Origin: Candidatus Omnitrophota bacterium
GTDB taxonomy: Bacteria > Omnitrophota > Gorgyraeia > Tantalellales > Tantalellaceae
Length of the DNA: 64,000 nucleotides
Assembly: GCA_014728075.1 (NCBI GenBank)
Contig: WJMG01000075.1
Span: 4,262 to 68,261 of the forward strand
Direction of reading: 5' to 3'
Positions 3,915 through 57,267 of the stretch are shown one piece after another. The stretch's first letter is position 1. The number at the start of each line of letters is the position of its first letter. The notes under the pieces were generated by a model. The model was not told where the DNA came from and made no database searches. It worked only from the letters and a program-made list of their open reading frames with translations. The position numbers and the translations under genes were made by a program.

Positions 3915-4397
3915 TCACAACCCTGTTTCTCTCTGCATATCCACTATATTGTGGCCCCGGTAAACGATCTCCCCCTCGCTGTTAACCGCTATTACCGCGG
4001 GGATACCCCTCACGCGGTAAGCGGAAGCGACCCTGCCGTCGAGATCAAGCGCCATCGGATACTTTATCCCCGTCCTCTCCACGAACGAAGCCACTTTAGC
4101 GGGGCTTTCCTGTATATTCACACCGATGATCCCGACGCTGTCGCCTTTATCGGTGTAATAATCGTTTACTTCCGGGATCTCCCTCACGCAGTAAGGGCAC
4201 CAGCTGGCTCCGAAGACCAGTACCGCGGCTTCTTTTGTCTTCAGGACTTCCGAAAGGGATATTTCGTTCCCGGCGAGGTCCTTAAGAGTGAAGTCAGGCG
4301 CTTTTCCGGCTCCACCCAGCCCCTGTGTATCCGCGGGAGTGCACGCGCTTAGAACGCAGACCGATAATACGGCTATGGTAAAAAGTTTAAGTTTCAT
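3915..4397 (-). CDS. TlpA/ResA-like thiol-disulfide oxidoreductase lipoprotein
   Basis: Lipoprotein signal peptide (LSVCVLSAC) and WCPYC thioredoxin active site. Confidence 0.8.
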   Translation of the reverse strand: MKLKLFTIAVLSVCVLSACTPADTQGLGGAGKAPDFTLKDLAGNEISLSEVLKTKEAAVLVFGASWCPYCVREIPEVNDYYTDKGDSVGIIGVNIQESPAKVASFVERTGIKYPMALDLDGRVASAYRVRGIPAVIAVNSEGEIVYRGHNIVDMQRETGL

Positions 4398-4476
4398 ATA
4401 TCTCCTCCTTTAGGATAAATAAGCCCGTTCCCGGCACTCAAACCCGGACCGGGCCTTAACCCGCCTTGATATCTCA

Positions 4477-5175
4477 TCATAAACTCAGCATTCCGGCTTT
4501 GTAAATATAATATTCCCCGAGTAAAATCAATAACAGGGCGAAAATTTTCTGTACCGCTTTCATCGCTTTCTCCGACCTGGGAAGGGAAGAAACTATCCCC
4601 GCGAAAGTTCCGATAACTATCAGAACAACGCCGAACCCGAGAGCGAAAGTAAAAAGCAGCGAGACCCCCAGAACCGGATTCTGGGTGGTTGCCACAAAAG
4701 CGAGCAAAGCCCCCAGCACCGCCGCGGCGCAGGGAGAGGCCACGAACCCGGAGGCGACACCCATAAAGAACACCGAAAGAGGGTGCCCGCTCTTTCCGGG
4801 CTTTCCGGCCCCCGCTCTTGCCAGCAGCAAAGTGGGAAGCGGGATCACATCAACAAGCGCCAGCGCAAAAAATATCATCACATTACCGACGACCAAATAT
4901 ACCAGGGGGTTGGTCTGGAACTGACCGAAAAGCTTTCCGGTCAAGGCCGCGGCGGCGCCCAGCGCGGAAAATGTGACCGCCATGCCCATGACATAGCTTA
5001 CCGAAAGGATAAAGTTCCTGGCCCTTGAGGAATCCCTGCCGGTACCTATCACGCCTACTATAATGGGTATCAACGGATAGACACATGGAGTGAAAGATGT
5101 GGCGAGGCCGCCGAGAAACACGGCTATGAAAGTGACCGGAGAAGGATTGTTCAGGTAATACGAAATATCCTGCAT
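4477..5175 (-). CDS. ccdA: cytochrome c-type biogenesis protein CcdA (DsbD transmembrane domain)
   Basis: Two conserved Cys in TM helices (FTPCVYPLIP, SPCAAAVL). Start set at MQDISYY (ATG 5175) with a GGAAAGGTGA Shine-Dalgarno sequence. Confidence 0.85.
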   Translation of the reverse strand: MQDISYYLNNPSPVTFIAVFLGGLATSFTPCVYPLIPIIVGVIGTGRDSSRARNFILSVSYVMGMAVTFSALGAAAALTGKLFGQFQTNPLVYLVVGNVMIFFALALVDVIPLPTLLLARAGAGKPGKSGHPLSVFFMGVASGFVASPCAAAVLGALLAFVATTQNPVLGVSLLFTFALGFGVVLIVIGTFAGIVSSLPRSEKAMKAVQKIFALLLILLGEYYIYKAGMLSL

Positions 5176-5231
5176 AAAATCACCTTTCCAAGAAAACACT
5201 CAGGGTTCAGGTACAGGTTCGGTTCCTCATT

Positions 5232-5867
5232 TCACTTGAATATCGTTCCGGTCTGTGCCGACCAGAAAAGTATATCGAGTTCATCCATGGGGATATCTAT
5301 ACTCCTGGAAAAACCCTCCAGTTTTTTTTCCAATTCAAAATAGCATTTCCTCGATATGCATACCGGTCTTTCGTCCACCAGCCCGTAACGGAGCATGTTC
5401 TTTATTATATGGACATCGAGTATAGCCAGGTCACGGCCGAAACCGATATTCCTCAGAAAATGACTGGCTTCCTTGTATCCGATACCCTTGATGTTCCTGA
5501 CAAGCCAGTCCCTGGTAGCCTTTATGTCCTTTTCGTCTATTCTCTCCTTTATGCGTATGTTCCCTTCCCTGGTCAAGCGCTCCCGGGTCTCGAAGATATA
5601 ACCGGCCTTATTGTTGGGGAACCTTACGGCTTTAAGCCCCTCCCGTATATCTTCCCTGCTTCCGGAAAAAAGCGCCCCGCTTTCAGCGAGCCCGGAAACT
5701 GCCCGGTCGCAGTATACCGCTTTGGACTGCGGTGTGCAGATACAGAAACAAAGCTCGGCGAATATATCCCGTTCGTCACCCTGCCACACTCTTTTGAAAT
5801 CTCTGAGCCTTTCCTTTATGGCTTCTTTCTTTTGCGCGTACTGTTCAAGTAGTTCTTTCATCATCAC
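5232..5867 (-). CDS. Ogg2-type 8-oxoguanine DNA glycosylase/AP lyase (HhH-GPD)
   Basis: About 210 aa, helix-hairpin-helix with catalytic Lys (IKGIGYKEASHFLRNIG) followed by Asp. Size and pattern match archaeal/Thermotoga-type Ogg. Confidence 0.6.
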   Translation of the reverse strand: MMMKELLEQYAQKKEAIKERLRDFKRVWQGDERDIFAELCFCICTPQSKAVYCDRAVSGLAESGALFSGSREDIREGLKAVRFPNNKAGYIFETRERLTREGNIRIKERIDEKDIKATRDWLVRNIKGIGYKEASHFLRNIGFGRDLAILDVHIIKNMLRYGLVDERPVCISRKCYFELEKKLEGFSRSIDIPMDELDILFWSAQTGTIFK

Positions 5868-6048
5868 ACATCTTCATGAGCTCGCGGGCGAGCTTCATGT
5901 GACCTTTTTCCTCTTCTGCTATCGAGTAAAGGACCTTTCTTATTTCCGGGTCCTCGACCTGTTCGGCGTAATGCCCGTAGAAGGCCTTCGCCCTCTCCTC
6001 GTGAACGAATATCTCCCTGAAATCCGCGTGCAGCATGTCAATATTCAT
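5845..6048 (-). CDS. ferritin-like (rubrerythrin-family) half-domain protein, C-terminal half
   Basis: 67 aa; resembles the C-terminal two helices of the neighbouring rubrerythrin-like protein (FY...V.DP..R..L.SIAEEEKGH.KLAREL, E-x-x-H metal-ligand motif). The ATG overlaps the stop of the upstream 80-aa ORF. Confidence 0.45.
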   Translation of the reverse strand: MNIDMLHADFREIFVHEERAKAFYGHYAEQVEDPEIRKVLYSIAEEEKGHMKLARELMKMCDDERTT

Positions 6049-6280
6049 TTCTGGGGTCCTTTTCTATATTCTTAATAAGGCCTTCAACTGTCTCCTTATG
6101 CCTGGAGGAATCGTTATAGAGCCGCGTAAGGATCTTCTTCATCTTTTGAGCTTTTTCGGCGGGAACGCCTTCGGCGTGATCCAGTATCCCCTTGGAAAAA
6201 TTCGCCAGTGTCGTGACCATTCCCTCCTCCACATAAACTACCTCGTTAAGACCGGCAAGAAGCCTTTCCCTGGATATCAT
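6038..6280 (-). CDS. ferritin-like half-domain protein, N-terminal half (translationally coupled to trxB)
   Basis: 80 aa from ATG 6280, which overlaps the trxB stop (ATGA). Two predicted helices with acidic residues; together with the 67-aa ORF it is about 147 aa, the size of one ferritin-like domain. Confidence 0.4.
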   Translation of the reverse strand: MISRERLLAGLNEVVYVEEGMVTTLANFSKGILDHAEGVPAEKAQKMKKILTRLYNDSSRHKETVEGLIKNIEKDPRNEY

Positions 6281-7197
6281 GCCCACCCCCTGTTCCTCGC
6301 CAGATAGCTGAAAGCCCCTAAAGCTGCCTTGGCTCCCTCTCCGGCGGCTATTATTATCTGTTTTTCCGGAATATCCGTGACATCTCCGGCCGCGTATATG
6401 CCTTCAACGCTCGTCTCGTTCCGAAAGTTCACTTTTATCTCTCCAGAACCGTTCTTTTCAACGGCGCTTTCGAACTCCGAATTAGGGATAAGGCCTACCT
6501 CGACGAAAACACCTTCTACGGCTAAATCCCGCCTGCCCGCGGGAGTCTGGACGCTTACCCCGCCGACCAGGCCATTACCGGATATCTCCAGTATCGTGCT
6601 GGAGTTCATAACGGTCACCTTATCCGAAGACATCACCTTTTCCCTTATTACCGCGTCACCGCCCGGTTCTTCGGTGTTATTTACAAGATAGACATGGTCC
6701 GCTATCCTTATAAGCTGGAGCGCGGCTTCCAGAGCGGAATTCCCGCCTCCGGCGACAACGACCTTTTTCCCCGCGAAAAGGGGAGCGTCGCAGGTCGCGC
6801 AATAAGTCACTCCCCTGTTACGGAACTCCTTTTCCCCCGGAACGCCCATTTCCCTGGACCTCTTGCCGGAAGCGATAATGACCGTCCTTGCCGCGTAATA
6901 CGCTTCCTCCGTCCCCACCTTCACTACGCCGCCGTCCTTGAGTATGGAAACGGCCTTTTCCCCTTCTCTCATCTCCACGGCGTATTTTTTCATGTGTTCT
7001 TCGAATTTCGCCGCAAGCTCGTTGCCGGTTATGAACTGGTATCCTGCATAGTTCTCTATTTCCCCGCTCCAGGCGGCCTGTCCGCCTATATCAAGAGATA
7101 CTACCAGAAGGTCCATCTTTTTCCTGGCGGCGTATATCGCCGCCGTAATTCCCGCCGGACCGGCGCCTATTATGATAAGGTCGTAAATTTTATCCAT
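6277..7197 (-). CDS. trxB: thioredoxin-disulfide reductase
   Basis: 306 aa, FAD motif IIGAGPAG, redox-active CATCD motif, NADPH-binding GGGNSA. Confidence 0.9.
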   Translation of the reverse strand: MDKIYDLIIIGAGPAGITAAIYAARKKMDLLVVSLDIGGQAAWSGEIENYAGYQFITGNELAAKFEEHMKKYAVEMREGEKAVSILKDGGVVKVGTEEAYYAARTVIIASGKRSREMGVPGEKEFRNRGVTYCATCDAPLFAGKKVVVAGGGNSALEAALQLIRIADHVYLVNNTEEPGGDAVIREKVMSSDKVTVMNSSTILEISGNGLVGGVSVQTPAGRRDLAVEGVFVEVGLIPNSEFESAVEKNGSGEIKVNFRNETSVEGIYAAGDVTDIPEKQIIIAAGEGAKAALGAFSYLARNRGWA

Positions 7198-22231: not shown

Positions 22232-22370
22232 ACAACAAAAGAACTCCCTGCTTTTTCCGCGCAGGGAGTTCTTTTGTTTTCTCCTCCCTACGCCGGCATT
22301 AACCGGATCAGGTCAACGGGTAATCCGACTTCATCGGAACTCTCAGAAGGACCAGCCTCCTCCCCGGGAT
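22232..22370 (-). ncRNA. TPP (thiamine pyrophosphate) riboswitch with terminator expression platform
   Basis: Minus-sense sequence carries the conserved GGGGAG...CUGAGA...ACCC...UGACCUGAUCCGGUUAAUGCCGGCGUAGGGA core. It is followed by hairpin AAAAGAACUCCCUGC/GCAGGGAGUUCUUUU plus a U-rich tail, about 80 nt upstream of thiS. Confidence 0.85.
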
Positions 22371-22505
22371 ATCTTTTTTTTCACATATTATAAAGGACCT
22401 CCCGGTCATATCCTGTCGAGCGGCCTTTATCCAAGACCTCAAAAAAACCGAAGATCCTCAAATGAAATTAGACCATAATACTACAGTAAAGTCAATATAT
22501 TGATA

Positions 22506-34328: not shown

Positions 34329-34550
34329 TCAAATTCTGTACTTTTTGACATCTATCCCGAGCTTCCGTATCTTCAGCCTGAGAGTATTCCTGTTTATTCC
34401 CAGAAGCTTCGCGGCGATCGACTGGTTGCCGAAAGCCCTTTTCAGGGCTTTTTCAATAAGCAGTTTTTCAGTACCGCTGATCACCCTGTCGTAAACGCAT
34501 CCCGTATCCGCCGCCGAAAAAACCTCATCGATATTAATATCTTCCCTCAT
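34329..34550 (-). CDS. Fis-family helix-turn-helix DNA-binding protein
   Basis: 73 aa; C-terminal HTH_8 (EKALKRAFGNQSIAAKLLGINRNTLRLKIRKLGI); first gene of the unit containing gltB. Confidence 0.6.
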   Translation of the reverse strand: MREDINIDEVFSAADTGCVYDRVISGTEKLLIEKALKRAFGNQSIAAKLLGINRNTLRLKIRKLGIDVKKYRI

Positions 34551-34628: not shown

Positions 34629-34669
34629 AAATAAAAAAAGCCTTACCAAGCGTCGGAGCTTGATAAGGC
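34629..34669 (-). terminator. rho-independent terminator inside the leader of the fis-like/gltB unit
   Basis: Minus-sense GCCUUAUCAAGC-uccgac-GCUUGGUAAGGC (12-bp stem) followed by UUUUUUUAUUU. Confidence 0.6.
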
Positions 34670-34787
34670 GTCTTTGCCTTAAAGCGAAGTCTTACAGACC
34701 TTTATGAAGCCTAAAAACTCATCGATGAGCATCGGAACTCCCGGGACCGCCCGGTCCCCGGTTCGGTACAGCTTCACTCAGGTGCCC

Positions 34788-34816
34788 ATTCTACCATTCA
34801 TAAATACATATGTCAA
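34788..34816 (-). promoter_or_regulatory. sigma70-like promoter TTGACA - 17 nt - TAGAAT
   Basis: Consensus -35, 17-nt spacer, 5/6 -10; fires towards the terminator and the fis-like gene. Confidence 0.5.
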
Positions 34817-37438: not shown

Positions 37439-37459
37439 CTCTCTCCTCCTTTTCGGTTA

Positions 37460-37503
37460 AAAAAGATAAGGCGCCTTCCGGCCTACACGGCCAAAAGACG
37501 CCT
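37460..37503 (-). terminator. terminator-like hairpin with U-tract in the amtB(1) leader
   Basis: Minus-sense GGCG..GGCCGUGUAGGCC..CGCC followed by UUAUCUUUUUU, about 40 nt upstream of the amtB ATG. Confidence 0.4.
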
Positions 37504-37531
37504 TCGTCGTTACCATTACCCGTAATATCGC

Positions 37532-37582
37532 GCACATCACTGTGCTTGATAATACAAGTAAACCGGGGATGGTTATGGTAAC
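37532..37582 (-). promoter_or_regulatory. conserved nitrogen-operon upstream element, copy 1
   Basis: About 50 nt shared with copy 2 at 40648..40702: GTTACC-N9-CCGGNTTTACTTGTATTATC(A/G)AGCAC-N6-GTGC. Confidence 0.5.
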
Positions 37583-37659
37583 TTTTATTTAAGGTTTGTT
37601 CGTAAAGGAGACCGGAACAGCCCGGAACTATACCCCGTTCTCTTTATCCGATACTCTTT

Positions 37660-40532: not shown

Positions 40533-40580
40533 CTTTAAAAAAAAGCGCCCTGCCCCTTCCCGAATCTCCGGAAAGAGAGG
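40533..40580 (-). terminator. hairpin plus U8 tract in the leader of the PII-like/porin/amtB operon
   Basis: Minus-sense CUCUUUCC-ggagauucg-GGAAGGGG ... GGGCGCUUUUUUUU, about 20 nt upstream of the Shine-Dalgarno sequence. Confidence 0.35.
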
Positions 40581-40647
40581 ACGCCCTTGTCAAAAAAGAC
40601 ATTCCTCCCGGAACGCCTTTGTCTGATAACATCTTTGTGTTCTTTTA

Positions 40648-40702
40648 CCGTGCACTGCTACGTGCTCGATAATACAAGTAAATCCGGATACTTTCCGGTA
40701 AC
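40648..40702 (-). promoter_or_regulatory. conserved nitrogen-operon upstream element, copy 2
   Basis: See copy 1; contains CCGGATTTACTTGTATTATCGAGCACGTAGCAGTGCACGG. Confidence 0.5.
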
Positions 40703-41223
40703 TACATAAGCTCTTCCTTGAGCGCCGAGCATTTTTCCCTTATGTTCTTAGTTATCTTCCCCACCATTACATGCGAAACCCCTATTTTATCGCCTATCTC
40801 CCTGGTGGTGTAACCTTCCAACCTGTAGAAAAACACATTCTTTTCCCTTTCCGTGAACATTGACTCCGTTTCGTCCAGAAGAAGGTATATCTCCAGGGTC
40901 CCCGTATCCTTTGTATAACTATCGGAGACCAGGGTATCCTCGATGGTGATATCCTCCTCGATAGGGGTATACATGCTGATGGAATTCCTGTCCACGCTCT
41001 TGCATATTTTCCTTATATAGTTCTTCAGGAAGAAATATGACCCCTGAAGTATATAGCTGTCGGTCTTTCCTTCCAGCTCGCCGTTCTCGAACCTTAGCCA
41101 GAGGTCAAGAAGGGCTTCCTGAAAGAAATCGTCCTCGTCGCAGTAAGAATATCTGTTCCTTACCTTGTACGAAATAGCTCTTATCCTGGGCGAATATTTT
41201 GCGAGAACATCTTCGTAGCTCAT
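40702..41223 (-). CDS. RNA polymerase sigma factor, sigma-70 family (ECF-sized)
   Basis: 173 aa from MSYEDVL; region 2 (FFQEALLDLWLRF) and region 4 HTH (REKNVFFYRLEGYTTREIGDKIGVSHVMV). Confidence 0.7.
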   Translation of the reverse strand: MSYEDVLAKYSPRIRAISYKVRNRYSYCDEDDFFQEALLDLWLRFENGELEGKTDSYILQGSYFFLKNYIRKICKSVDRNSISMYTPIEEDITIEDTLVSDSYTKDTGTLEIYLLLDETESMFTEREKNVFFYRLEGYTTREIGDKIGVSHVMVGKITKNIREKCSALKEELM

Positions 41224-41254
41224 CCTGACCACCTCCTTTTTTGGCTTTATAAAG

Positions 41255-41300
41255 AAAAAGCCCTTTCGGGTCCTTTTCAGGACCCGAAAGGGCTTCGATG
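41255..41300 (-). terminator. rho-independent terminator after the GAF-ANTAR gene
   Basis: Minus-sense GAAGCCCUUUCGGGUCC-ugaaaa-GGACCCGAAAGGGCUU followed by UUUUCUUUAU. Confidence 0.75.
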
Positions 41301-41440
41301 CCTTAACCCGGCCGCGGGCTTTATGAACTAAAAAAGAGGCTTCCATTCCGGTAAGCCTCTTCGCGTTTTGTACATCCGTGTACGACTTTTATTATACTAC
41401 TTTCCCGGATCAAAGTCAACAACTATCGTCTTTCACAAGG

Positions 41441-42148
41441 TCACTTTTTACCGCCCGATATCTCGAAGGACAGTATAACGGCCTCTGCCACTTCCTTCAT
41501 GGAAATACGCTTGTTCATGCTGGACTTCCTCAAGAGCTTGTATGCCTCGTCCTCGGAAAGGTCCTGCTGCCTCATCAGAATACCCTTTGCTTTCTCGACC
41601 TTTTTCCTGGTCTCGAGCTCTTCCTGGATCACTTTGGTCTTTACCATCAGTTCTGTATTCTCTATCGCTACAGCCGCCTGGTTGGCGACGGCGCTCAGAA
41701 GTTCAATATCACTTTTGGTAAAATCGTGTTTCTCGACCGTGTAAACATTTATAACGCCTATGACCTTTTCCTTGACCATCATAGGCACGCTTAACATCGA
41801 AATAAGGCCTTCTTTCTTCGCGAGCTGCTTTTCCTTATACCTGTCGTCCTGGGAAACATCCTTTATAACAAGCGGCTCGGCTTCTTCGGCTACCAGGCCC
41901 ACTATACCCTCCCCCACCTTTATGGCCCTTTCTTTCAGATATTCCTGGCTCATTGCCTGCGTTGCCCTTATCCTGAGTTCCCCGGCTTCTTCGTCGAGAA
42001 GCCAGAGAGCGCATATTTCGGCCCCCATGACACCCGCGGTGAGATTAACGATCAGCTTAAGTATATCCTCGAGGTAAAGGTCGCTGGTTATAGCGTGGCT
42101 TATCCTGGTCAAGGTCGAAAGATATTCTTTTTCAGAAGATTTCGGCAT
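41441..42148 (-). CDS. GAF-ANTAR RNA-binding antitermination regulator
   Basis: 235 aa; N-terminal GAF domain, C-terminal ANTAR motif (AKGILMRQQDLSEDEAYKLLRKSSMNKRISMKEVAEAVI). Confidence 0.8.
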   Translation of the reverse strand: MPKSSEKEYLSTLTRISHAITSDLYLEDILKLIVNLTAGVMGAEICALWLLDEEAGELRIRATQAMSQEYLKERAIKVGEGIVGLVAEEAEPLVIKDVSQDDRYKEKQLAKKEGLISMLSVPMMVKEKVIGVINVYTVEKHDFTKSDIELLSAVANQAAVAIENTELMVKTKVIQEELETRKKVEKAKGILMRQQDLSEDEAYKLLRKSSMNKRISMKEVAEAVILSFEISGGKK

Positions 42149-42264
42149 GATTTTTCCCCGGTTTAAATATTTATCGCTGCCCTGTCCTCGGGCATTCTCG
42201 AAACATATCCCCCGCTTTCACCCGGGCTTCTTCGCCGCGGAAGTTCCCGGGACATTCCGAGTTT

Positions 42265-42297
42265 ATGAGTTACGGGCGCAAAGCGCCCGTAACTCAT
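42265..42297. repeat. 33-nt perfect palindrome ATGAGTTACGGGCGC-AAA-GCGCCCGTAACTCAT
   Basis: 15-bp perfect inverted repeat with a 3-nt centre, 9 nt past the glnN stop codon and upstream of the GAF-ANTAR gene. Confidence 0.8.
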
Positions 42298-42306
42298 GTG
42301 CTCATT

Positions 42307-44400
42307 TTACATCATGAAGAGCATTTCCGCGTAAGACGGGAGCGGCCAGATCTCGTCCGGAAGAAGTTCTTCCAGACGGTCGACGGCTACTCTGAGCTCG
42401 TTCATAGCGTCTATCTTTTCGGAAGCCTTGCCTCCAAGAGCGGCTTCGAGTTCCTTTATACCCTTGAGCATCTTCTCGGTCTCGCCGCCTACTTCCTTGA
42501 GAAGGTCCATAGTACCGTCCGACTTGCACCCGCATGTTTTCATGTCATCTATGGTCCCCGCGAGCGAAGACTGGTACTCCAGGGCTATGGGAACTATCAT
42601 TGTCCTGGCCATTTTGAGCGCGACACTGGCTTCGATAGTAATGGTCTCTTCATACTGCTCCTCGTAGATATCGTGCCTTGAAGCCAGCTCCTCGGGTGTG
42701 AGGACTTTATGTTTCTTGAACATCTCGATCACTTTAGGATCTTTTGTAGCTTCGAGAGCCGCTTCGGTGTTCCTCAGGTTCGGAAGCCCTCTCTTTTCGG
42801 CTTCCTTGTGCCAGTCTTCGGTATAATTATCACCGTTGAAGAGTATTCTTTTATGTTTTTTGACTATACCCTGAAGCACGACCTGTAGAGCTTCGTTAAA
42901 ATCCTTACCGGATTTCACATCAGACTCGAGTTCCGTGCATATCTCATCGAGAGCATCCGCGACTATAGTGTTAAGCACGATGTTAGGCCCGGCGCAGCTC
43001 TGGTTGGATCCCGGCGCCCGGAACTCGAACTTATTCCCCGTAAAGGCGAAGGGGCTCGTCCTGTTCCTGTCAGTCACATCTTTGGGAAGCTGCGGCAGGG
43101 AATCCACCCCGAGTTCAAGGAGATCCGCCTGCTTTGAGCTTTTTGCGCCACCCTTTTCTATCTGGTCGATTATATCCGTAAGCTGGTCTCCCAGAAATAT
43201 GGACAGTATCGCCGGCGGAGCCTCGTTAGCGCCCAGCCTGTGGTCGTTACCGGCGGTAGCTACCGAAGCTCTAAGCATCGGCGCGTTAGTATCGATCGCC
43301 TTCATGAGCGCGCATATCATGGTAAGGAACTTGGCGTTCTCGTGCGGATTATCCCCCGGGGAAAGCCAGTTCTTGCCGTCCGGACCGACCACCGACCAGT
43401 TGTTATGCTTACCCGATCCATTGACCCCGGCGTATGGTTTTTCGTGAAGAAGGCATACAAAACCGTGCTTTTCCGCCACCTTTTTCAGCGTCTCCATACA
43501 TATCATGTTGTGATCTATCGAAAGGTTCTGCTCCTCAAAAACCGGAGCTATCTCGAACTGCGCCGGACAGACCTCGTTGTGACGGGTCTTTGCCGGTATA
43601 CCCAGCCTCCAGAGCTCCCTGTCCAGATCGTCCATAAAGGACATGACCCTTGTCCTGATAGCTCCGAAGTAATGATCGTCCATCTGCTGGTGTTTAGCCG
43701 GGGCGCTGCCGAAAAGGGTCCTTCCCGTCTGTATCAGGTCAAGCCTGGCTTCGTAAAACGACCTGTCGACAAGAAAATATTCCTGTTCGGGGCCGAGGGT
43801 GGCGTAAGCTCTCTTGTCTTTAGTGTCTATACCGAAAAGCCCAGCCAGGCGGCATACCTGTTTTGAGAGAGCCGCGACCGACCTTAAAAGAGGTGTCTTC
43901 TTGTCAAGCGCTACCCCTGTATAGGAATAGAAAGCCGTCGGGATGCACAGGGTCGCCCCTATTTCCCCTTTCTTTATGAAAGCGGGCGAAGTCGGGTCCC
44001 ATGCGGTATACCCTCTGGCTTCGAAGGTAGCCCTGAGCCCTCCGGACGGAAAACTTGAAGCGTCCGGCTCGCCTTTAATAAGCTCATTGCCGGAAAATTT
44101 CATAATAACGCCGCCTTCCTGGTCCGGCTCTATGAAAGAATCGTGTTTTTCGGCCGTCGCCCCCGTGAGCGGCTGGAACCAGTGGGTAAAATGGGTCGCG
44201 CCCTTAGCGACCGCCCAGGTCTTCATGGCGTCGGCGACCTCGTCGGCTATGGAAGGGTCTATCGTCTTGCCTTCCTTTATTGTCGCGATAAGCGAACCAT
44301 ACGCTTTTTCCGAAAGGTAATTGCGCATGTTCTTGATGCTGAAAACATTCTCGCCGTAAATATCCGCTACCGACCTTACTCCCATTTCTTCCTTACACAT
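42307..44400 (-). CDS. glnN: glutamine synthetase type III
   Basis: About 697 aa from MCKEEMGV (AAGGAGG Shine-Dalgarno sequence); length and conserved segments typical of GSIII (GlnN). Confidence 0.9.
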   Translation of the reverse strand: MCKEEMGVRSVADIYGENVFSIKNMRNYLSEKAYGSLIATIKEGKTIDPSIADEVADAMKTWAVAKGATHFTHWFQPLTGATAEKHDSFIEPDQEGGVIMKFSGNELIKGEPDASSFPSGGLRATFEARGYTAWDPTSPAFIKKGEIGATLCIPTAFYSYTGVALDKKTPLLRSVAALSKQVCRLAGLFGIDTKDKRAYATLGPEQEYFLVDRSFYEARLDLIQTGRTLFGSAPAKHQQMDDHYFGAIRTRVMSFMDDLDRELWRLGIPAKTRHNEVCPAQFEIAPVFEEQNLSIDHNMICMETLKKVAEKHGFVCLLHEKPYAGVNGSGKHNNWSVVGPDGKNWLSPGDNPHENAKFLTMICALMKAIDTNAPMLRASVATAGNDHRLGANEAPPAILSIFLGDQLTDIIDQIEKGGAKSSKQADLLELGVDSLPQLPKDVTDRNRTSPFAFTGNKFEFRAPGSNQSCAGPNIVLNTIVADALDEICTELESDVKSGKDFNEALQVVLQGIVKKHKRILFNGDNYTEDWHKEAEKRGLPNLRNTEAALEATKDPKVIEMFKKHKVLTPEELASRHDIYEEQYEETITIEASVALKMARTMIVPIALEYQSSLAGTIDDMKTCGCKSDGTMDLLKEVGGETEKMLKGIKELEAALGGKASEKIDAMNELRVAVDRLEELLPDEIWPLPSYAEMLFMM

Positions 44401-44448
44401 GACTACCTCCTTGGATTGTATGACACACACTAAATTTTACTCTTTTTC

Positions 44449-44584
44449 GCCTGAAAAAGAAAGAACATCCTTTCCGGGCCGCTATAAAAGAAGCCTTAAA
44501 AGGATGTTCTTCCCTGAACTTCCCGTTTATCCCTCACAACAAAGTGGGGGTAAAAAGAAAAGGCACTCCCGTAAAAGGAATGCC
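44449..44584 (-). promoter_or_regulatory. glnN leader with two terminator-like hairpins (candidate attenuator)
   Basis: Hairpin 1 GGCAUUCC-uuuuac-GGGAGUGCC plus UUUUCUUUUU (44551..44584). Hairpin 2 AGAACAUCCUUUU...AAAGGAUGUUCUU plus UCUUUUUC (44449..44510). Confidence 0.5.
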
Positions 44585-44690
44585 TCTTTGCTTTCAAATC
44601 CGCACTGCTTCGTGCAGTTTTTATTTTACCCTATTCCTGAATTTTGTCAACATCTTTTTTTGCCCGCTTTTCCCGCTTCTTCTGCCTGCC

Positions 44691-45392
44691 TTTTGTACCG
44701 GGTTCCGACCCCACTTTGTACCGGGTACGAACATAAAGCTGTAGCTGTCCCCTCAGTTTTTTGAAAGAATTACATCAAAAAAGTTGTATCTAATAGTGAG
44801 GGGGGATATTTATACGATCGTGTAAAAATCAACACAACCAACAGGAGGTGCTCAAAATGTCCAGAACGAAAAGAATACTTATCGACAACAGTTATTACCA
44901 CATAATAAACAGGGGAAATCGAAAAAAAGAGATCTTCAAACATGGATCAGATTACAGGCATTTTCTCTCTCTACTTAAAAAGGCGAAGAAAAAACATAAA
45001 GTAAAGATAAACGCTTACTGCTTAATGCCGAACCATATACATATCATCGCTTATATCCGGGAAGCAAAGACCATCTCCAGCTTAATGCACTATGTTTCCC
45101 GAAATTACGCCTCGTATTTTAATTCCAGATATGAAAAAGTAGGCCATCTTTGGCAAAGCAGGTTCAAGAGTTATCCTCTTCTCACGGAAGAATATTTGAT
45201 ACATGTGGCCAATTATATTGAAATAAACCCGGTAAAAGCAAAGATAGTGGATGACCCATCAAAATACACCTGGAGCAGTTACAATGAAAGATGCCTTATG
45301 CAAAAACAGTATCTTCTGGATCCTATTACGGTATAGGGACAGGTACAAGTTCAGATCGGTACCCGGTACAAAGCTGACACGGTACCCGGTAC
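44691..45392 (+). mobile_element. REP-RAYT-REP unit (REP-associated tyrosine transposase flanked by inverted REP sequences)
   Basis: IS200-like Y1 transposase ORF bracketed by inverted copies of a ~45-bp element GGGGACAG(G/C)TAC..-N8-GTACCCGGTACAAAG. Confidence 0.7.
44857..45336 (+). CDS. REP-associated tyrosine transposase (IS200/IS605 TnpA-like, Y1 HUH)
   Basis: 159 aa from ATG 44857 (AGGAGG Shine-Dalgarno sequence); HUH motif NHIHII and a downstream Tyr-containing helix (YVSRNYASYFN). Confidence 0.8.
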   Translation: MSRTKRILIDNSYYHIINRGNRKKEIFKHGSDYRHFLSLLKKAKKKHKVKINAYCLMPNHIHIIAYIREAKTISSLMHYVSRNYASYFNSRYEKVGHLWQSRFKSYPLLTEEYLIHVANYIEINPVKAKIVDDPSKYTWSSYNERCLMQKQYLLDPITV

Positions 45393-45399
45393 TGTTTTG

Positions 45400-45714
45400 T
45401 TACTTCCGTATCATCACCAGCACCATCTTAACCCTTTCCGGCGCACTCACGGAATGAGGGACATCCGCCGGCATTATTATGGACTCGCCCGCCGATAGCC
45501 CGTGCTTCTCACCGGCTATGGTGACTTCCGCGCGGCCGTCCACCACATTGACAAGAGCATCGAAAGGCGCGGTGTGCTCACTGAGCCCCTGATCCTTGTC
45601 AAAAGCGAAAACCGTAACGGTACTTTCCTTGTCTATTATCGCCCTGCTGACCACGGACCCTTCCTGGTAATCTATAAGGTCGCCGTATTTGAACACTTTA
45701 GCTTTTATATCCAT
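45400..45714 (-). CDS. cupin domain protein
   Basis: 104 aa from MDIKAKV (AAGGAG Shine-Dalgarno sequence); conserved-barrel cupin pattern (G...H..P.D). Confidence 0.65.
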   Translation of the reverse strand: MDIKAKVFKYGDLIDYQEGSVVSRAIIDKESTVTVFAFDKDQGLSEHTAPFDALVNVVDGRAEVTIAGEKHGLSAGESIIMPADVPHSVSAPERVKMVLVMIRK

Positions 45715-45805
45715 TTCAACTCCTTTCCACAGCGTCGAGCGTAAAGAAAACCCCGCCGGTCCGATACGGCGATACATCTCACCTCTTCAAGCTGAACGCT
45801 AAGGG

Positions 45806-46660
45806 TTAGATCCATTTCTCCTCTTTTACATCACCGTTTATGCCAACCACTATCTTCTTTACGGGAACTTTCCGCTGCGCTCTCCCAACAGCTTCCTCAG
45901 CTAATGCTAAAAGGCCTCCACAGCAGGGAACTTCCATTATCATAACCGTAAGCGTATTTATAAGCGCCCCATCTATCATTGAAACGAGCTTCTCGAGATA
46001 CACCTCCCGGCCCGTATCGAGCTTGGGACAAGCTATTGCAAGGGCTTTCCCCTTCAGGTAGTTTCCGTGAAAATCACCCAGGGAATAAGCGACACAGTCG
46101 GCCGACAGCACAAGGTCTTTTTTCTTAAGAAAAGGCGCGGCCGCGGGGATAAGGTGCAGCTGGACCGGCCACTGGCCCAGTTCTGAACTTCCGTCCCCTC
46201 TTTTTCCGGATATCGCCGGGGATTTTTTTGAAAGCCGCATTGTCCGGGATCCGGGACACCCCGAAAACTTCTCTTCCGGCCTCTCATTTTTCTGTTCACC
46301 CGTTCCGTCCTCCGGGATCCCGATGCCCTCGCGCCTCAAAAACTCAACAGCCGTCTTCAGGTATCCTTCTTCCCCGTGGGCTCTCAGATGGTCAAGATGC
46401 GCTTTTATGACATTGGCCCCCTGCTTTACGATATTCCGCATCACCTTTTCCTCGTCGTAGGCTTCGGCTTCCCTTTCCTCTACGGTTATAGCGCCCACCG
46501 GACATTTCCCGATACAGGCACCCAGCCCGTCGCAGAAAAGATCGCTTATCAGCCTGGCCTTGCCGTCGATCATCTGTATAGCGCCTTCCGGGCAGTTCGG
46601 TATACATTCGCCGCAGCCGTTACACTTTTTCTCGTTTATTTGTATTATCTTTCTTTTCAT
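45806..46660 (-). CDS. 4Fe-4S dicluster domain iron-sulfur protein with uncharacterised C-terminal domain
   Basis: Two CxxCxxC...CP ferredoxin motifs at the N-terminus (CNGCGECIPNCP, CDGLGACIGKCP) and a Cys-containing C-terminal domain (PCCGG). Confidence 0.55.
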   Translation of the reverse strand: MKRKIIQINEKKCNGCGECIPNCPEGAIQMIDGKARLISDLFCDGLGACIGKCPVGAITVEEREAEAYDEEKVMRNIVKQGANVIKAHLDHLRAHGEEGYLKTAVEFLRREGIGIPEDGTGEQKNERPEEKFSGCPGSRTMRLSKKSPAISGKRGDGSSELGQWPVQLHLIPAAAPFLKKKDLVLSADCVAYSLGDFHGNYLKGKALAIACPKLDTGREVYLEKLVSMIDGALINTLTVMIMEVPCCGGLLALAEEAVGRAQRKVPVKKIVVGINGDVKEEKWI

Positions 46661-52840: not shown

Positions 52841-53845
52841 CTAACAGATCCTCGGCAGCTGTTCGCCCGTTAACATATCGATTATCCTGGCGACCCCGTA
52901 TTTTGTCCTGACACAGACCTTTCCCGGGTTTTCGCCGGTAACTTCGCCGATCACGGCCGCCTCGCGCCCGTATTCGCAGGATCTAAGGGCCGCCAGGACT
53001 TCCTTCCCGGCCGCCGGGTCTACCATCATCACCGCTTTTCCTTCGTTGGCCATATAAAGCGGATCAAGCCCCAGAAGTTCGCACCCCCCTCTTACCGCGT
53101 CCGATACAGGTATACTCGCCTCTTCCAGCGTTATCCCCAGCGCGGTCCCCCGGACAGCTTCGTTAAGTGTCGTGGCCAGGCCGCCTCGCGTAGGATCACG
53201 CATAAAATCCACACCGGGAACATCACGAACAAGGGCTCCCAGCATTCCGTTAAGCGGAGCGCAATCGCTCTCGAGAGGGGTATCGAATTCCAGCCCTTTG
53301 CGTTTACTGAGAACGGCAAGCCCGTGATCCCCGAGAGTTCCCGTGACGATCACCTTATGGCCGGCCCTGATCTTCCCGGCCGAAGGCCTGGACTCCGAGG
53401 TAAAGACCCCTATACCCGAAGTATTTATGAACAAGCCGTCAGCTTCTCCCCTCCCCACGACTTTAGTATCCCCGGCTACTATTTTAACCCCGGCCTCGTT
53501 CGCGGCGGAGGCCATTGAAACAACTATTCTCTCAAGCTCTTCAAGTGAAAAACCTTCCTCAATTATGAACCCGCAGCTTATGTACCTGGCTTCCGCTCCC
53601 TGAACGGCGAGATCGTTCACCGTACCGCATATCGCGAGCTTGCCTATATCTCCTCCCGGAAAGAACACCGGCTTTATGACGAACGAATCTGTCGTAAAAG
53701 CTATTTCCCCGCTTTCGACAGCTACAACGGCCGAATCCTCCGTCCTCTCCAGGACCTCGTTGCCCAGTTCCCTGAAGAAAAGGCCCTTTATAAGCTCGTA
53801 TGTCTTTTTCCCGCCCGATCCGTGGGCAAGCGTTATTCGTTCCAT
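52841..53845 (-). CDS. hypE: hydrogenase maturation protein HypE
   Basis: 334 aa PurM-like; C-terminal ...PRIC. Confidence 0.9.
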   Translation of the reverse strand: MERITLAHGSGGKKTYELIKGLFFRELGNEVLERTEDSAVVAVESGEIAFTTDSFVIKPVFFPGGDIGKLAICGTVNDLAVQGAEARYISCGFIIEEGFSLEELERIVVSMASAANEAGVKIVAGDTKVVGRGEADGLFINTSGIGVFTSESRPSAGKIRAGHKVIVTGTLGDHGLAVLSKRKGLEFDTPLESDCAPLNGMLGALVRDVPGVDFMRDPTRGGLATTLNEAVRGTALGITLEEASIPVSDAVRGGCELLGLDPLYMANEGKAVMMVDPAAGKEVLAALRSCEYGREAAVIGEVTGENPGKVCVRTKYGVARIIDMLTGEQLPRIC

Positions 53846-57228: not shown

Positions 57229-57267
57229 GGGGACAGGTACCGCCTTGGCTGCGTACCCGGTACAAAG
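57229..57267 (+). repeat. REP-like element copy c
   Basis: GGGGACAGGTACCGCC-N8-GTACCCGGTACAAAG; same family as the RAYT-flanking REPs. Confidence 0.7.

Follow-up and report, generated by a model that had tools for sequence, protein, structure and literature searches.

The antiterminators AmiR, NasR, EutV and GnfR bind RNA through their ANTAR output domain. An ANTAR target consists of two hexaloop hairpins, P1 and P2, whose loops have A as the first and G as the fourth residue (A1 and G4), with the 3' arm of P2 extending into the 5' arm of an intrinsic terminator (PMC3369931, PMC3369936). There is precedent in the same studies for ANTAR regulons of nitrogen genes, including glutamine synthetase. 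Here we describe the leader of glnN, the gene for a type III glutamine synthetase (GS), in a 64,000-nucleotide stretch of a Candidatus Omnitrophota genome (contig WJMG01000075.1; hereafter the window, to which all coordinates refer). Based on its sequence, this leader is likely to be a transcription attenuator of the ANTAR type, dependent on a protein and built as two copies in series. The hairpin at the predicted transcription start is the P1 of an ANTAR target, and each of the two terminators, T1 and T2, is overlapped by a hexaloop antiterminator hairpin (P2 and P2'). The proposed antiterminator is a GAF-ANTAR protein encoded next to glnN. The elements, from the promoter to the regulator gene, are as follows.

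44645..44650, minus strand: -35 hexamer of the glnN promoter, TTGACA, read from the sequence
44623..44628, minus strand: -10 hexamer of the glnN promoter, TAAAAT, read from the sequence
44600..44617, minus strand: P1 hairpin, CUGCAC-GAAGCA-GUGCGG, 6 bp, hexaloop at 44611..44606, -8.1 kcal/mol
44578..44595, minus strand: P2 antiterminator hairpin, GAAAGC-AAAGAG-GCAUUC, hexaloop at 44589..44584 with A1/G4, from folding and covariance model R1
44552..44588, minus strand: terminator T1, 13-bp stem AAGAGGCAUUCCU/GGGAGUGCCUUUU and U-run, from the terminator scan, -17.7 kcal/mol
44531..44550, minus strand: P1'-like hairpin, CCCCCAC-UUUGUU-GUGAGGG, non-canonical hexaloop with U1/G4, -8.6 kcal/mol
44502..44523, minus strand: P2' antiterminator hairpin, GGAAGUUC-AGGGAA-GAACAUCC, hexaloop at 44515..44510 with A1/G4, -7.7 kcal/mol
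44453..44513, minus strand: terminator T2, long stem GGAAGAACAUCCUUUU/GAAAGGAUGUUCUUUC with a small inner hairpin, and U-run, -28.1 kcal/mol
44398..44410, minus strand: ribosome-binding site GGAGG (44410..44406) and glnN start codon ATG (44400..44398), read from the sequence
42307..44400, minus strand: glnN, type III glutamine synthetase, the regulated gene (Pfam GSIII_N 3e-78, Gln-synt_C, Gln-synt_C-ter)
41441..42148, minus strand: GAF-ANTAR one-component regulator, the proposed antiterminator (Pfam GAF 3e-25, ANTAR 2e-21)

The eut leaders of Enterococcus faecalis, controlled by EutV/EutW (PMC3369931, PMC8934654), resemble the glnN leader in presenting P1 and P2 hexaloops before a terminator, with G4 in both loops, and in the overlap between the 3' arm of P2 and the 5' arm of the terminator. 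The distance from loop start to loop start is 24 nt in eutP (A29/A53) and 22 nt in the first unit of the glnN leader. The ANTAR domain encoded in the window also conserves the equivalents of Tyr164 and Met172 of EutV, along with most of its basic contact residues. In contrast to EutV, the window regulator is a one-component GAF-ANTAR protein and not a phosphorylated response regulator, and its targets would be genes of nitrogen assimilation, among them that for glutamine synthetase III, in place of those for ethanolamine use. The RNA differs as well: P1 of glnN has G1, P2 has two G-C pairs and a mismatch, and two attenuators follow one another in a single leader. NasR, which acts on the nasF leader of Klebsiella oxytoca (PMC3369936), is likewise a one-component ANTAR protein with a leader made of a P1 hexaloop and a terminator in front of a nitrogen-assimilation operon; it differs in its NIT domain, which binds nitrate or nitrite where the window regulator has a GAF domain, in its single attenuator and in its proteobacterial host.

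GnfK/GnfR of Geobacter sulfurreducens (PMC2995071) shares with the window the control of nitrogen genes (glnK, amtB, nif) and premature terminators that follow the promoter. The GnfR site CAGGCAANGGCGCC, located upstream of the terminator and overlapping it, corresponds to a GGC-AANGGC-GCC hexaloop (PMC2995071) and nearly equals the GAC-AAAGGC-GUY hairpin of two further leaders in the window (leaders C and D, described below) and the GGC-AAAGAC-GCC hairpin of a third (leader E). GnfR itself is a REC-ANTAR protein activated by a kinase under a sigma54/GnfM cascade, whereas the window combines a GAF sensor with sigma70-like promoters in Omnitrophica. Several ANTAR sites per genome were also predicted in Desulfotomaculum reducens, D. 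acetoxidans and Pelobacter carbinolicus (Ramesh et al. 2012, PMC3369931), where, as in the window, they precede genes for PII, the ammonium transporter, and glutamate and glutamine synthases. In D. acetoxidans, 13 sites are distributed over six transcription units, and multiple sites within one unit were thus part of these earlier predictions (PMC3369931). Those predictions concern Firmicutes and Deltaproteobacteria and leave the regulators unassigned, whereas here a specific adjacent GAF-ANTAR gene is conserved by its target throughout a clade and the tandem layout is kept in 8/8 close leaders. That ANTAR proteins control nitrogen genes by antitermination is established in principle through EutV, NasR, GnfR and the 2012 predictions. 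Such control had been predicted earlier for glutamine synthetase genes too, and the glnN leader would be a further, well-supported example of a known mechanism. GAF-ANTAR regulators were uncharacterised as of 2012 and 2020, according to papers of those years.

Two units in series upstream of glnN

We read the minus strand directly and recomputed all coordinates. This confirmed the promoter of the original prediction (TTGACA at 44650..44645, a 16-nt spacer and TAAAAT at 44628..44623), its hairpin at the predicted +1 (44617..44600) and its two terminator hairpins with U-runs 5' of the glnN ATG at 44400. The promoter matches the sigma70 consensus at 11 of 12 positions. Only two sigma70-like sites matching at 9 or more of the 12 positions occur within 42000..46000, and the glnN promoter is the only one at 11/12; shuffled versions of this interval contain on average 4.3 sites at 9/12 or better. 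Promoter spacing predicts a transcription start at about 44617..44615, from which the order is 5' hairpin, terminator 1, terminator 2 and ribosome-binding site. No sigma54 -24/-12 promoter was seen in the leader by eye, no formal scan having been made. The 225-nt leader folds at -77.1 kcal/mol compared with -55.9 +/- 4.6 in dinucleotide shuffles (z = -4.6), and 0/200 shuffles were as stable. The plus-strand open reading frames (ORFs) that cross it (44399..44764 and 44544..44744) have no Pfam match.

The first unit comprises P1, P2 and T1. The P1 loop has G at position 1 and G at position 4. P2 starts four nt after P1 and forms five pairs with one mismatch, folding at -1.5 kcal/mol alone. Its loop and 3' arm (44589..44578) sit within the 5' arm of T1 (44588..44577), which makes P2 and T1 mutually exclusive. 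The T1 stem, AAGAGGCAUUCC/GGGAGUGCCUUUU at 44588..44558, is followed by CUUUUU to 44552. Because P2 is far weaker than T1 (-1.5 against -17.7 kcal/mol), a protein clamp would be needed for P2 to prevail.

The second unit repeats this overlap, with the 3' arm of P2' (44509..44502) inside the 5' arm of T2 (44513..44498) and a loop spacing of 28 nt. The T2 stem, GGAAGAACAUCCUUUU...GAAAGGAUGUUCUUUC, spans 44513..44459 and is followed by UUUUUC to 44453; a simple terminator scan missed it because its loop exceeds 8 nt. P2' is likewise far weaker than T2 (-7.7 against -28.1 kcal/mol). G4 is present in all four loops of the leader (GAAGCA, AAAGAG, UUUGUU and AGGGAA). A1 is found in P2 and P2', and P1 and P1' have G1 and U1, respectively, so that the strict rule of A1 in both hairpins of an ANTAR target does not hold here.

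These hairpins were compared with chance. When the 30 nt upstream of each terminator were shuffled and the terminator was held fixed, a strict A1/G4 hairpin overlapping T1 arose in 1.6% of trials and one overlapping T2 in 2.8%. The window contains three copies of the motif GCAC-RNNGNN-GTGC, where 0.06 would be expected, and in every case the copy stands at a nitrogen leader's 5' start.

The region upstream of the promoter contains a REP-associated tyrosine transposase (RAYT; REP, repetitive extragenic palindromic) gene at 44848..45336 on the plus strand (NCBIfam NF047646, 80.6 bits; cutoff 80). The palindrome GTACCCGGTAC lies in pairs on both sides of it in inverted orientation (44690..44728 and 45359..45392), and only about 40 nt separate one REP doublet from the glnN -35 hexamer downstream of it. 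More copies are located at 57253, 61554 and 14346 (the last with one mismatch), and the window has 12 matches in all against 0.68 expected. The direct repeat ACCCGGTACAAA, present twice upstream of the -35 hexamer, was considered as a regulator site and rejected; we read it as REP elements flanking the transposase.

Conservation and the adjacent GAF-ANTAR protein

Genome and metagenome contig scans with the GS protein returned relatives at no more than 72% identity, too distant for leader alignment. Seven close relatives (84-88% GS identity) were obtained from a protein database and contig look-ups, and together with the window they provide the eight close leaders analysed here. All seven keep the promoter, P1 (RCAC-hexaloop-GUGY), P2 (GC-RARGAR-GC) over T1, and a second hexaloop hairpin overlapping T2. 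With every element in place, and with a layout that also recurs in distant glnN leaders, the transcription-attenuator architecture proposed in the original prediction is supported. The ANTAR-type glnN leaders of the relatives are preceded by a perfect TTGACA at 16-17 nt from TAnnnT, and the P1-P2 loop spacing in the close relatives is 17-24 nt.

Among the eight close leaders, the P1 stem is paired in 8/8, its outer pair covarying between GC, AU and GU. T1 is paired in 94.8% of cells, with 2 compensatory positions. The P2 core GC-RARGAR-GC is invariant in 8/8 and is therefore uninformative for covariation. G4 is invariant in the P1 and P2 loops of all eight, and position 1 of the P1 loop is A in five and G in three. 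In the second unit, two relatives (L070 and L073) retain P2' as GUUC-(A..G..)-GAAC, and the remaining ones have GGAU-RAYGAC-GUCC at that place; P1' is not kept as a hexaloop hairpin in L070 or L073.

In the distant relatives (GS identity up to 72%), which are metagenome-assembled genomes (MAGs) of Omnitrophota, Elusimicrobia and the Planctomycetes-Verrucomicrobia-Chlamydiae (PVC) group, glnN leaders feature TTGACA-17-TATAnT promoters and GGRC-AAWGRN-GUCC hexaloop hairpins that abut terminators, in one, two or three consecutive units. Four of these loci (L002, L004, L009 and L048) have two or three consecutive hexaloop-plus-terminator units, several of them with no separate P1. In L004 (3715..3877) the apical loop of the terminator is itself an A1/G4 hexaloop (AAUGAA), and the upper part of this terminator could be a second ANTAR-binding hairpin. 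The GS match in the Omnitrophota MAG L010 covers 4001..7053, which is 3053 nt compared with the usual ~2090, and suggests an insertion in glnN, possibly an intein or another element.

The GAF-ANTAR gene accompanies glnN in this clade. It is directly downstream in five of the seven close relatives, four of which share further downstream genes. In L070 it lies two genes further downstream, and the L073 contig stops just past glnN; all six close relatives whose contigs continue beyond glnN have the gene. In the distant relatives it is often directly upstream of glnN, and three of them (L004, L014 and L016) encode an extra GAF-only paralogue, ~30% identical to the GAF half, directly upstream of GAF-ANTAR; the window has none. 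The spacer between the two genes is 159 nt in the window and only 12-127 nt in the relatives. At 42265..42297 the window spacer forms a perfect 15-bp hairpin, AUGAGUUACGGGCGC-UUU-GCGCCCGUAACUCAU, 10 nt past the glnN stop and with no minus-strand U-tract, which may serve in RNA processing or stability, or terminate transcription weakly or in both directions. GlnN is 100% identical to a Candidatus Omnitrophica MAG protein; the NCBI record of the identical protein (P0001, 692 amino acids) begins at ATG 44385, 15 nt (five codons) further in, and the leader is unaffected.

The regulator has 235 amino acids, and an exact database look-up of its sequence gave no record. Its Pfam scores are 75.9 bits for ANTAR (cutoff 27.3) and 89.7 bits for the N-terminal GAF sensor. 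The ANTAR domain aligns to EutV (6wsh, 1e-11), Rv1626 and NasR (E 2e-7), and the conserved Y, M, R and K residues of the family are present in this alignment. Eleven of the 13 RNA-contact residues of EutV are retained (the equivalents of Arg142, Lys143, Glu146, Lys147, Lys149, Glu160, Tyr164, Arg168, Met172, Asn173 and Arg175). Of these residues in EutV, Met172 is essential and Tyr164 makes a stacking contact with the hexaloop G4 (PMC8934654). The GAF domain is nearest to those of PtsP/EI-Ntr (3ci6, 8e-18; PRK11061, 1e-20) and NifA (1e-19), and the EI-Ntr GAF domain binds glutamine (PMC4848567).

Based on these features, we propose the following mechanism. The near-consensus sigma70 promoter would start a transcript that begins with the stable P1, followed by the two terminators. 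By default, T1 and then T2 would end transcription ahead of glnN. An active GAF-ANTAR dimer would bind the hexaloops of P1 and P2, with G4 stacking on the conserved tyrosine. Once P2 is clamped, the base of T1 could not form beside the U-tract, and the shortened stem would let polymerase read through; P2' and T2 would undergo the same antitermination step. Two serial attenuators would give less leak and a sharper response. Given the similarity of its GAF domain to that of EI-Ntr, which binds glutamine, and to that of NifA, the regulator would most likely respond to cellular nitrogen status (glutamine and/or 2-oxoglutarate as the signal), with read-through expected under nitrogen limitation. 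The regulator gene, 12-159 nt downstream of glnN in the clade, is probably co-transcribed and autoregulated, since its position just downstream of glnN would feed the regulator back on its own expression.

Other leaders of the nitrogen cluster

glnN heads a minus-strand cluster that continues with the GAF-ANTAR gene, an extracytoplasmic function (ECF)-like sigma factor, a small ORF, a porin-like ORF, amtB and a PII gene, and then with a second amtB and PII gene, a glutamine amidotransferase, a small Fis-type helix-turn-helix (HTH) protein and gltB. Four further leaders in the cluster have the layout of the glnN leader, and two of these contain two terminators.

41251..41419, minus strand: leader B, upstream of the ECF-like sigma gene, tandem attenuators behind a TTGACT-17-TATAAT promoter
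40537..40665, minus strand: leader C, upstream of the small ORF, porin-like gene, amtB and glnK, with P1 GCAC-GUAGCA-GUGC
37459..37545, minus strand: leader D, upstream of the second amtB-glnK pair, with GCAC-AGUGAU-GUGC and UAUU-ACGGGU-AAUG
34633..34816, minus strand: leader E, upstream of the Fis-type HTH gene and gltB, hexaloop hairpins behind a TTGACA-17-TAGAAT promoter

Counting glnN, the five leaders hold eight or nine terminators within 10 kb. The first unit of leader B comprises P1 GUAC-ACGGAU-GUAC and P2 GC-GAAGAG-GC with T1, and its second unit comprises CCC-GCGGCC-GGG and GGC-AUCGAA-GCC with T2. Leader C has P2 GAC-AAAGGC-GUU with T1, followed by GAC-AAGGGC-GUC with T2, and leader D has P2 GAC-GAAGGC-GUC with its terminator. 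In leader E the 3' arm of P2 (UAAGGC-AAAGAC-GCCUUA) corresponds to the first 6 nt of a perfect 12-bp terminator, which makes it a textbook ANTAR P2. The GAF-ANTAR protein probably controls these four leaders, and with them the ECF-like sigma factor, the two amtB-glnK units and gltB.

One uniform terminator scanner was applied across the window, and terminators with an overlapping hexaloop hairpin accounted for 5/6 in the nitrogen leaders compared with 5/63 elsewhere (Fisher p = 1.3e-4). We also searched both strands of the window, unfiltered, with R1, a covariance model whose six training leaders all precede glnN in other organisms. Its top match was glnN P1-P2 at 16.1 bits (E 0.076 window-wide and 3.6e-4 within the leader), followed by leaders C and D, and 5 of its 12 matches fell in the five nitrogen leaders (binomial p ~3e-8). 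In the related loci R1 found 24 sites, all on the glnN strand. The two R1 helices covary, with 97.5% of cells paired and 22 double-sided changes against 5.4 in shuffles.

A broader model (R2) ranked glnN P1-P2 second (E 0.34), behind a match in the hypE coding sequence. This model is biased to GGGC-AAUGAU-GUCC and was set aside. Since R2 puts a chance match first, single-match E-values were not relied on. The hypE site, a GGGC-AACGAG-GUCC hexaloop at 53752..53789 on the minus strand in the N-terminal coding region, scores 17 bits with R2; it is probably a chance match and serves as a gauge of noise. The evidence beyond chance is moderate item by item and strong when combined.

Several other features of the cluster were recorded. 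The ECF-like sigma factor (40702..41223, minus strand; TIGR02937, 57 bits) has its own sigma70-like promoter and two hexaloop-plus-terminator units ahead of it, which suggests that the ANTAR protein heads a cascade acting on additional promoters via the sigma factor. Leaders C and D, with 75% identity over ~130 nt (40600..40730 and 37480..37610, minus strand), are paralogues. The block AGTTACC...CCGGNTTTACTTGTATTATC, common to both on their upstream side, lacks a good sigma70 -35 and may be the promoter type of the cluster's own sigma factor. Between leader E and gltB, a 73-amino-acid Fis/NtrC-type HTH protein is encoded at 34329..34550 on the minus strand.

Alternative readings and consequences

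Several points weigh against an ANTAR attenuator with two units. P1 has G1 where the canonical residue is A1, as do the P1 hairpins of 2/7 close relatives and of leader C, and mutation of A1 impaired the function of both EutV and NasR (PMC3369931). EutV contacts three closing pairs, and the glnN P2 offers two invariant G-C pairs, a mismatch and flanking A-U pairs, without covariation. The second unit has no canonical P1: the loop of P1' is UUUGUU, this hairpin is not conserved in L070 or L073, and the unit scores only 4.2 bits with R1. A relaxed hairpin (R1/G4, that is, either purine at loop position 1; stem of at least 3 bp) is frequent in shuffles, at 6-77% per terminator, and the shuffle test of this relaxed form is weak taken alone; T1 of leader B does not fit the hairpin descriptor, its P2 having only 2 bp. 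The single-match E-values of both models (0.076 and 0.34) are marginal, and R2 places the hypE match first. The ligand and the sign of regulation are inferred from domain similarity. G1 in P1 may be tolerated, as no specific contact with A1 is seen in the structure of EutV bound to RNA (PMC8934654).

Of the other explanations that we considered, the one that survives best, though we regard it as unlikely, limits ANTAR control to P1, P2 and T1 and makes T2 a different device: a constitutive fail-safe or insulator, a terminator with fixed read-through set by a self-forming P2', or the target of another factor. The departures of the second unit from the canonical form just described would fit such a role, and P2' is fairly stable alone at -7.7 kcal/mol. 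However, P2' has a strict A1/G4 hexaloop and its 3' arm is the 5' arm of T2, and a hairpin with an A/G1-G4 loop abuts the second terminator in all close relatives. Serial units also occur elsewhere, both in L002, L004, L009 and L048, where several units have no separate P1, and in leaders B and C of the window. We favour ANTAR control of T2 as well, with somewhat lower confidence than for the overall ANTAR attenuator model.

It is very unlikely that the hairpins play no part in the regulation of glnN and serve instead to stop transcripts that arrive from upstream or run antisense (such as from the REP/RAYT region) or to delimit a short small RNA, glnN then having an unrecognised promoter 3' of T2. 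A mobile-element-like RAYT gene with REP copies is indeed found just upstream, and two -10-like hexamers, TAAAAT (44439..44434) and TACAAT, lie between T2 and the ribosome-binding site. Neither hexamer has an acceptable -35, though, and the promoter scan found nothing there, so a promoter 3' of T2 was rejected. The 11/12 promoter stands directly before P1, and the arrangement is kept in relatives that have no RAYT. Two terminators set between a consensus promoter and the sole gene downstream, both overlapped by conserved alternative hairpins, constitute the signature of attenuation.

Least probable of all is an RNA-only or translation-coupled attenuator (a riboswitch for glutamine or another ligand, a T-box or a leader peptide): glutamine riboswitches do occur in front of cyanobacterial nitrogen genes and the leader folds significantly better than its shuffles, but the leader has no Rfam match at gathering thresholds and no riboswitch or T-box match in 44300..44900 even at E <= 10, the eight close leaders share no conserved multi-helix aptamer beyond the small hairpins, and the sole leader AUG, in the 3' arm of T2, has no properly spaced ribosome-binding site and opens no Gln-rich peptide or run of regulatory codons. 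Likewise, no ANTAR-target family of Rfam gave a match, either in the window at gathering thresholds or in 44300..44900 at E <= 10, where the only matches were chance-level plastid, microRNA and long noncoding RNA families. The single Rfam match at gathering score in the window is a thiamine pyrophosphate (TPP) riboswitch (RF00059) at 22268..22376 on the minus strand (73.3 bits, E 1.5e-12).

Returning to the ANTAR attenuator with two units in series, its consequence for annotation is that the long 5' untranslated region of glnN and its hairpins would be recorded as ANTAR-regulated attenuators and not as terminators of an upstream gene. We also put forward, tentatively and as a possibility that we think has less than an even chance of being right, that the GAF-ANTAR protein senses glutamine or 2-oxoglutarate directly and alone sets an Omnitrophica regulon (glnN, the two amtB-glnK units, gltB and the dedicated ECF-like sigma factor) through serial attenuators, some of which (the second units) would work with one hexaloop hairpin in place of the canonical pair. 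If this is true, it would provide the first functional model for the uncharacterised GAF-ANTAR class. It would also define a variant of RNA recognition in which a purine at loop position 1 is tolerated, one hairpin is enough, and two or three serial attenuators yield a switch-like response. With the regulator encoded beside its target and the two-attenuator design kept across an uncultured Omnitrophica clade, the locus offers a compact and conserved test case, and it supplies defined RNAs and a 235-amino-acid protein with which questions of GAF ligands and serial attenuators can be addressed.

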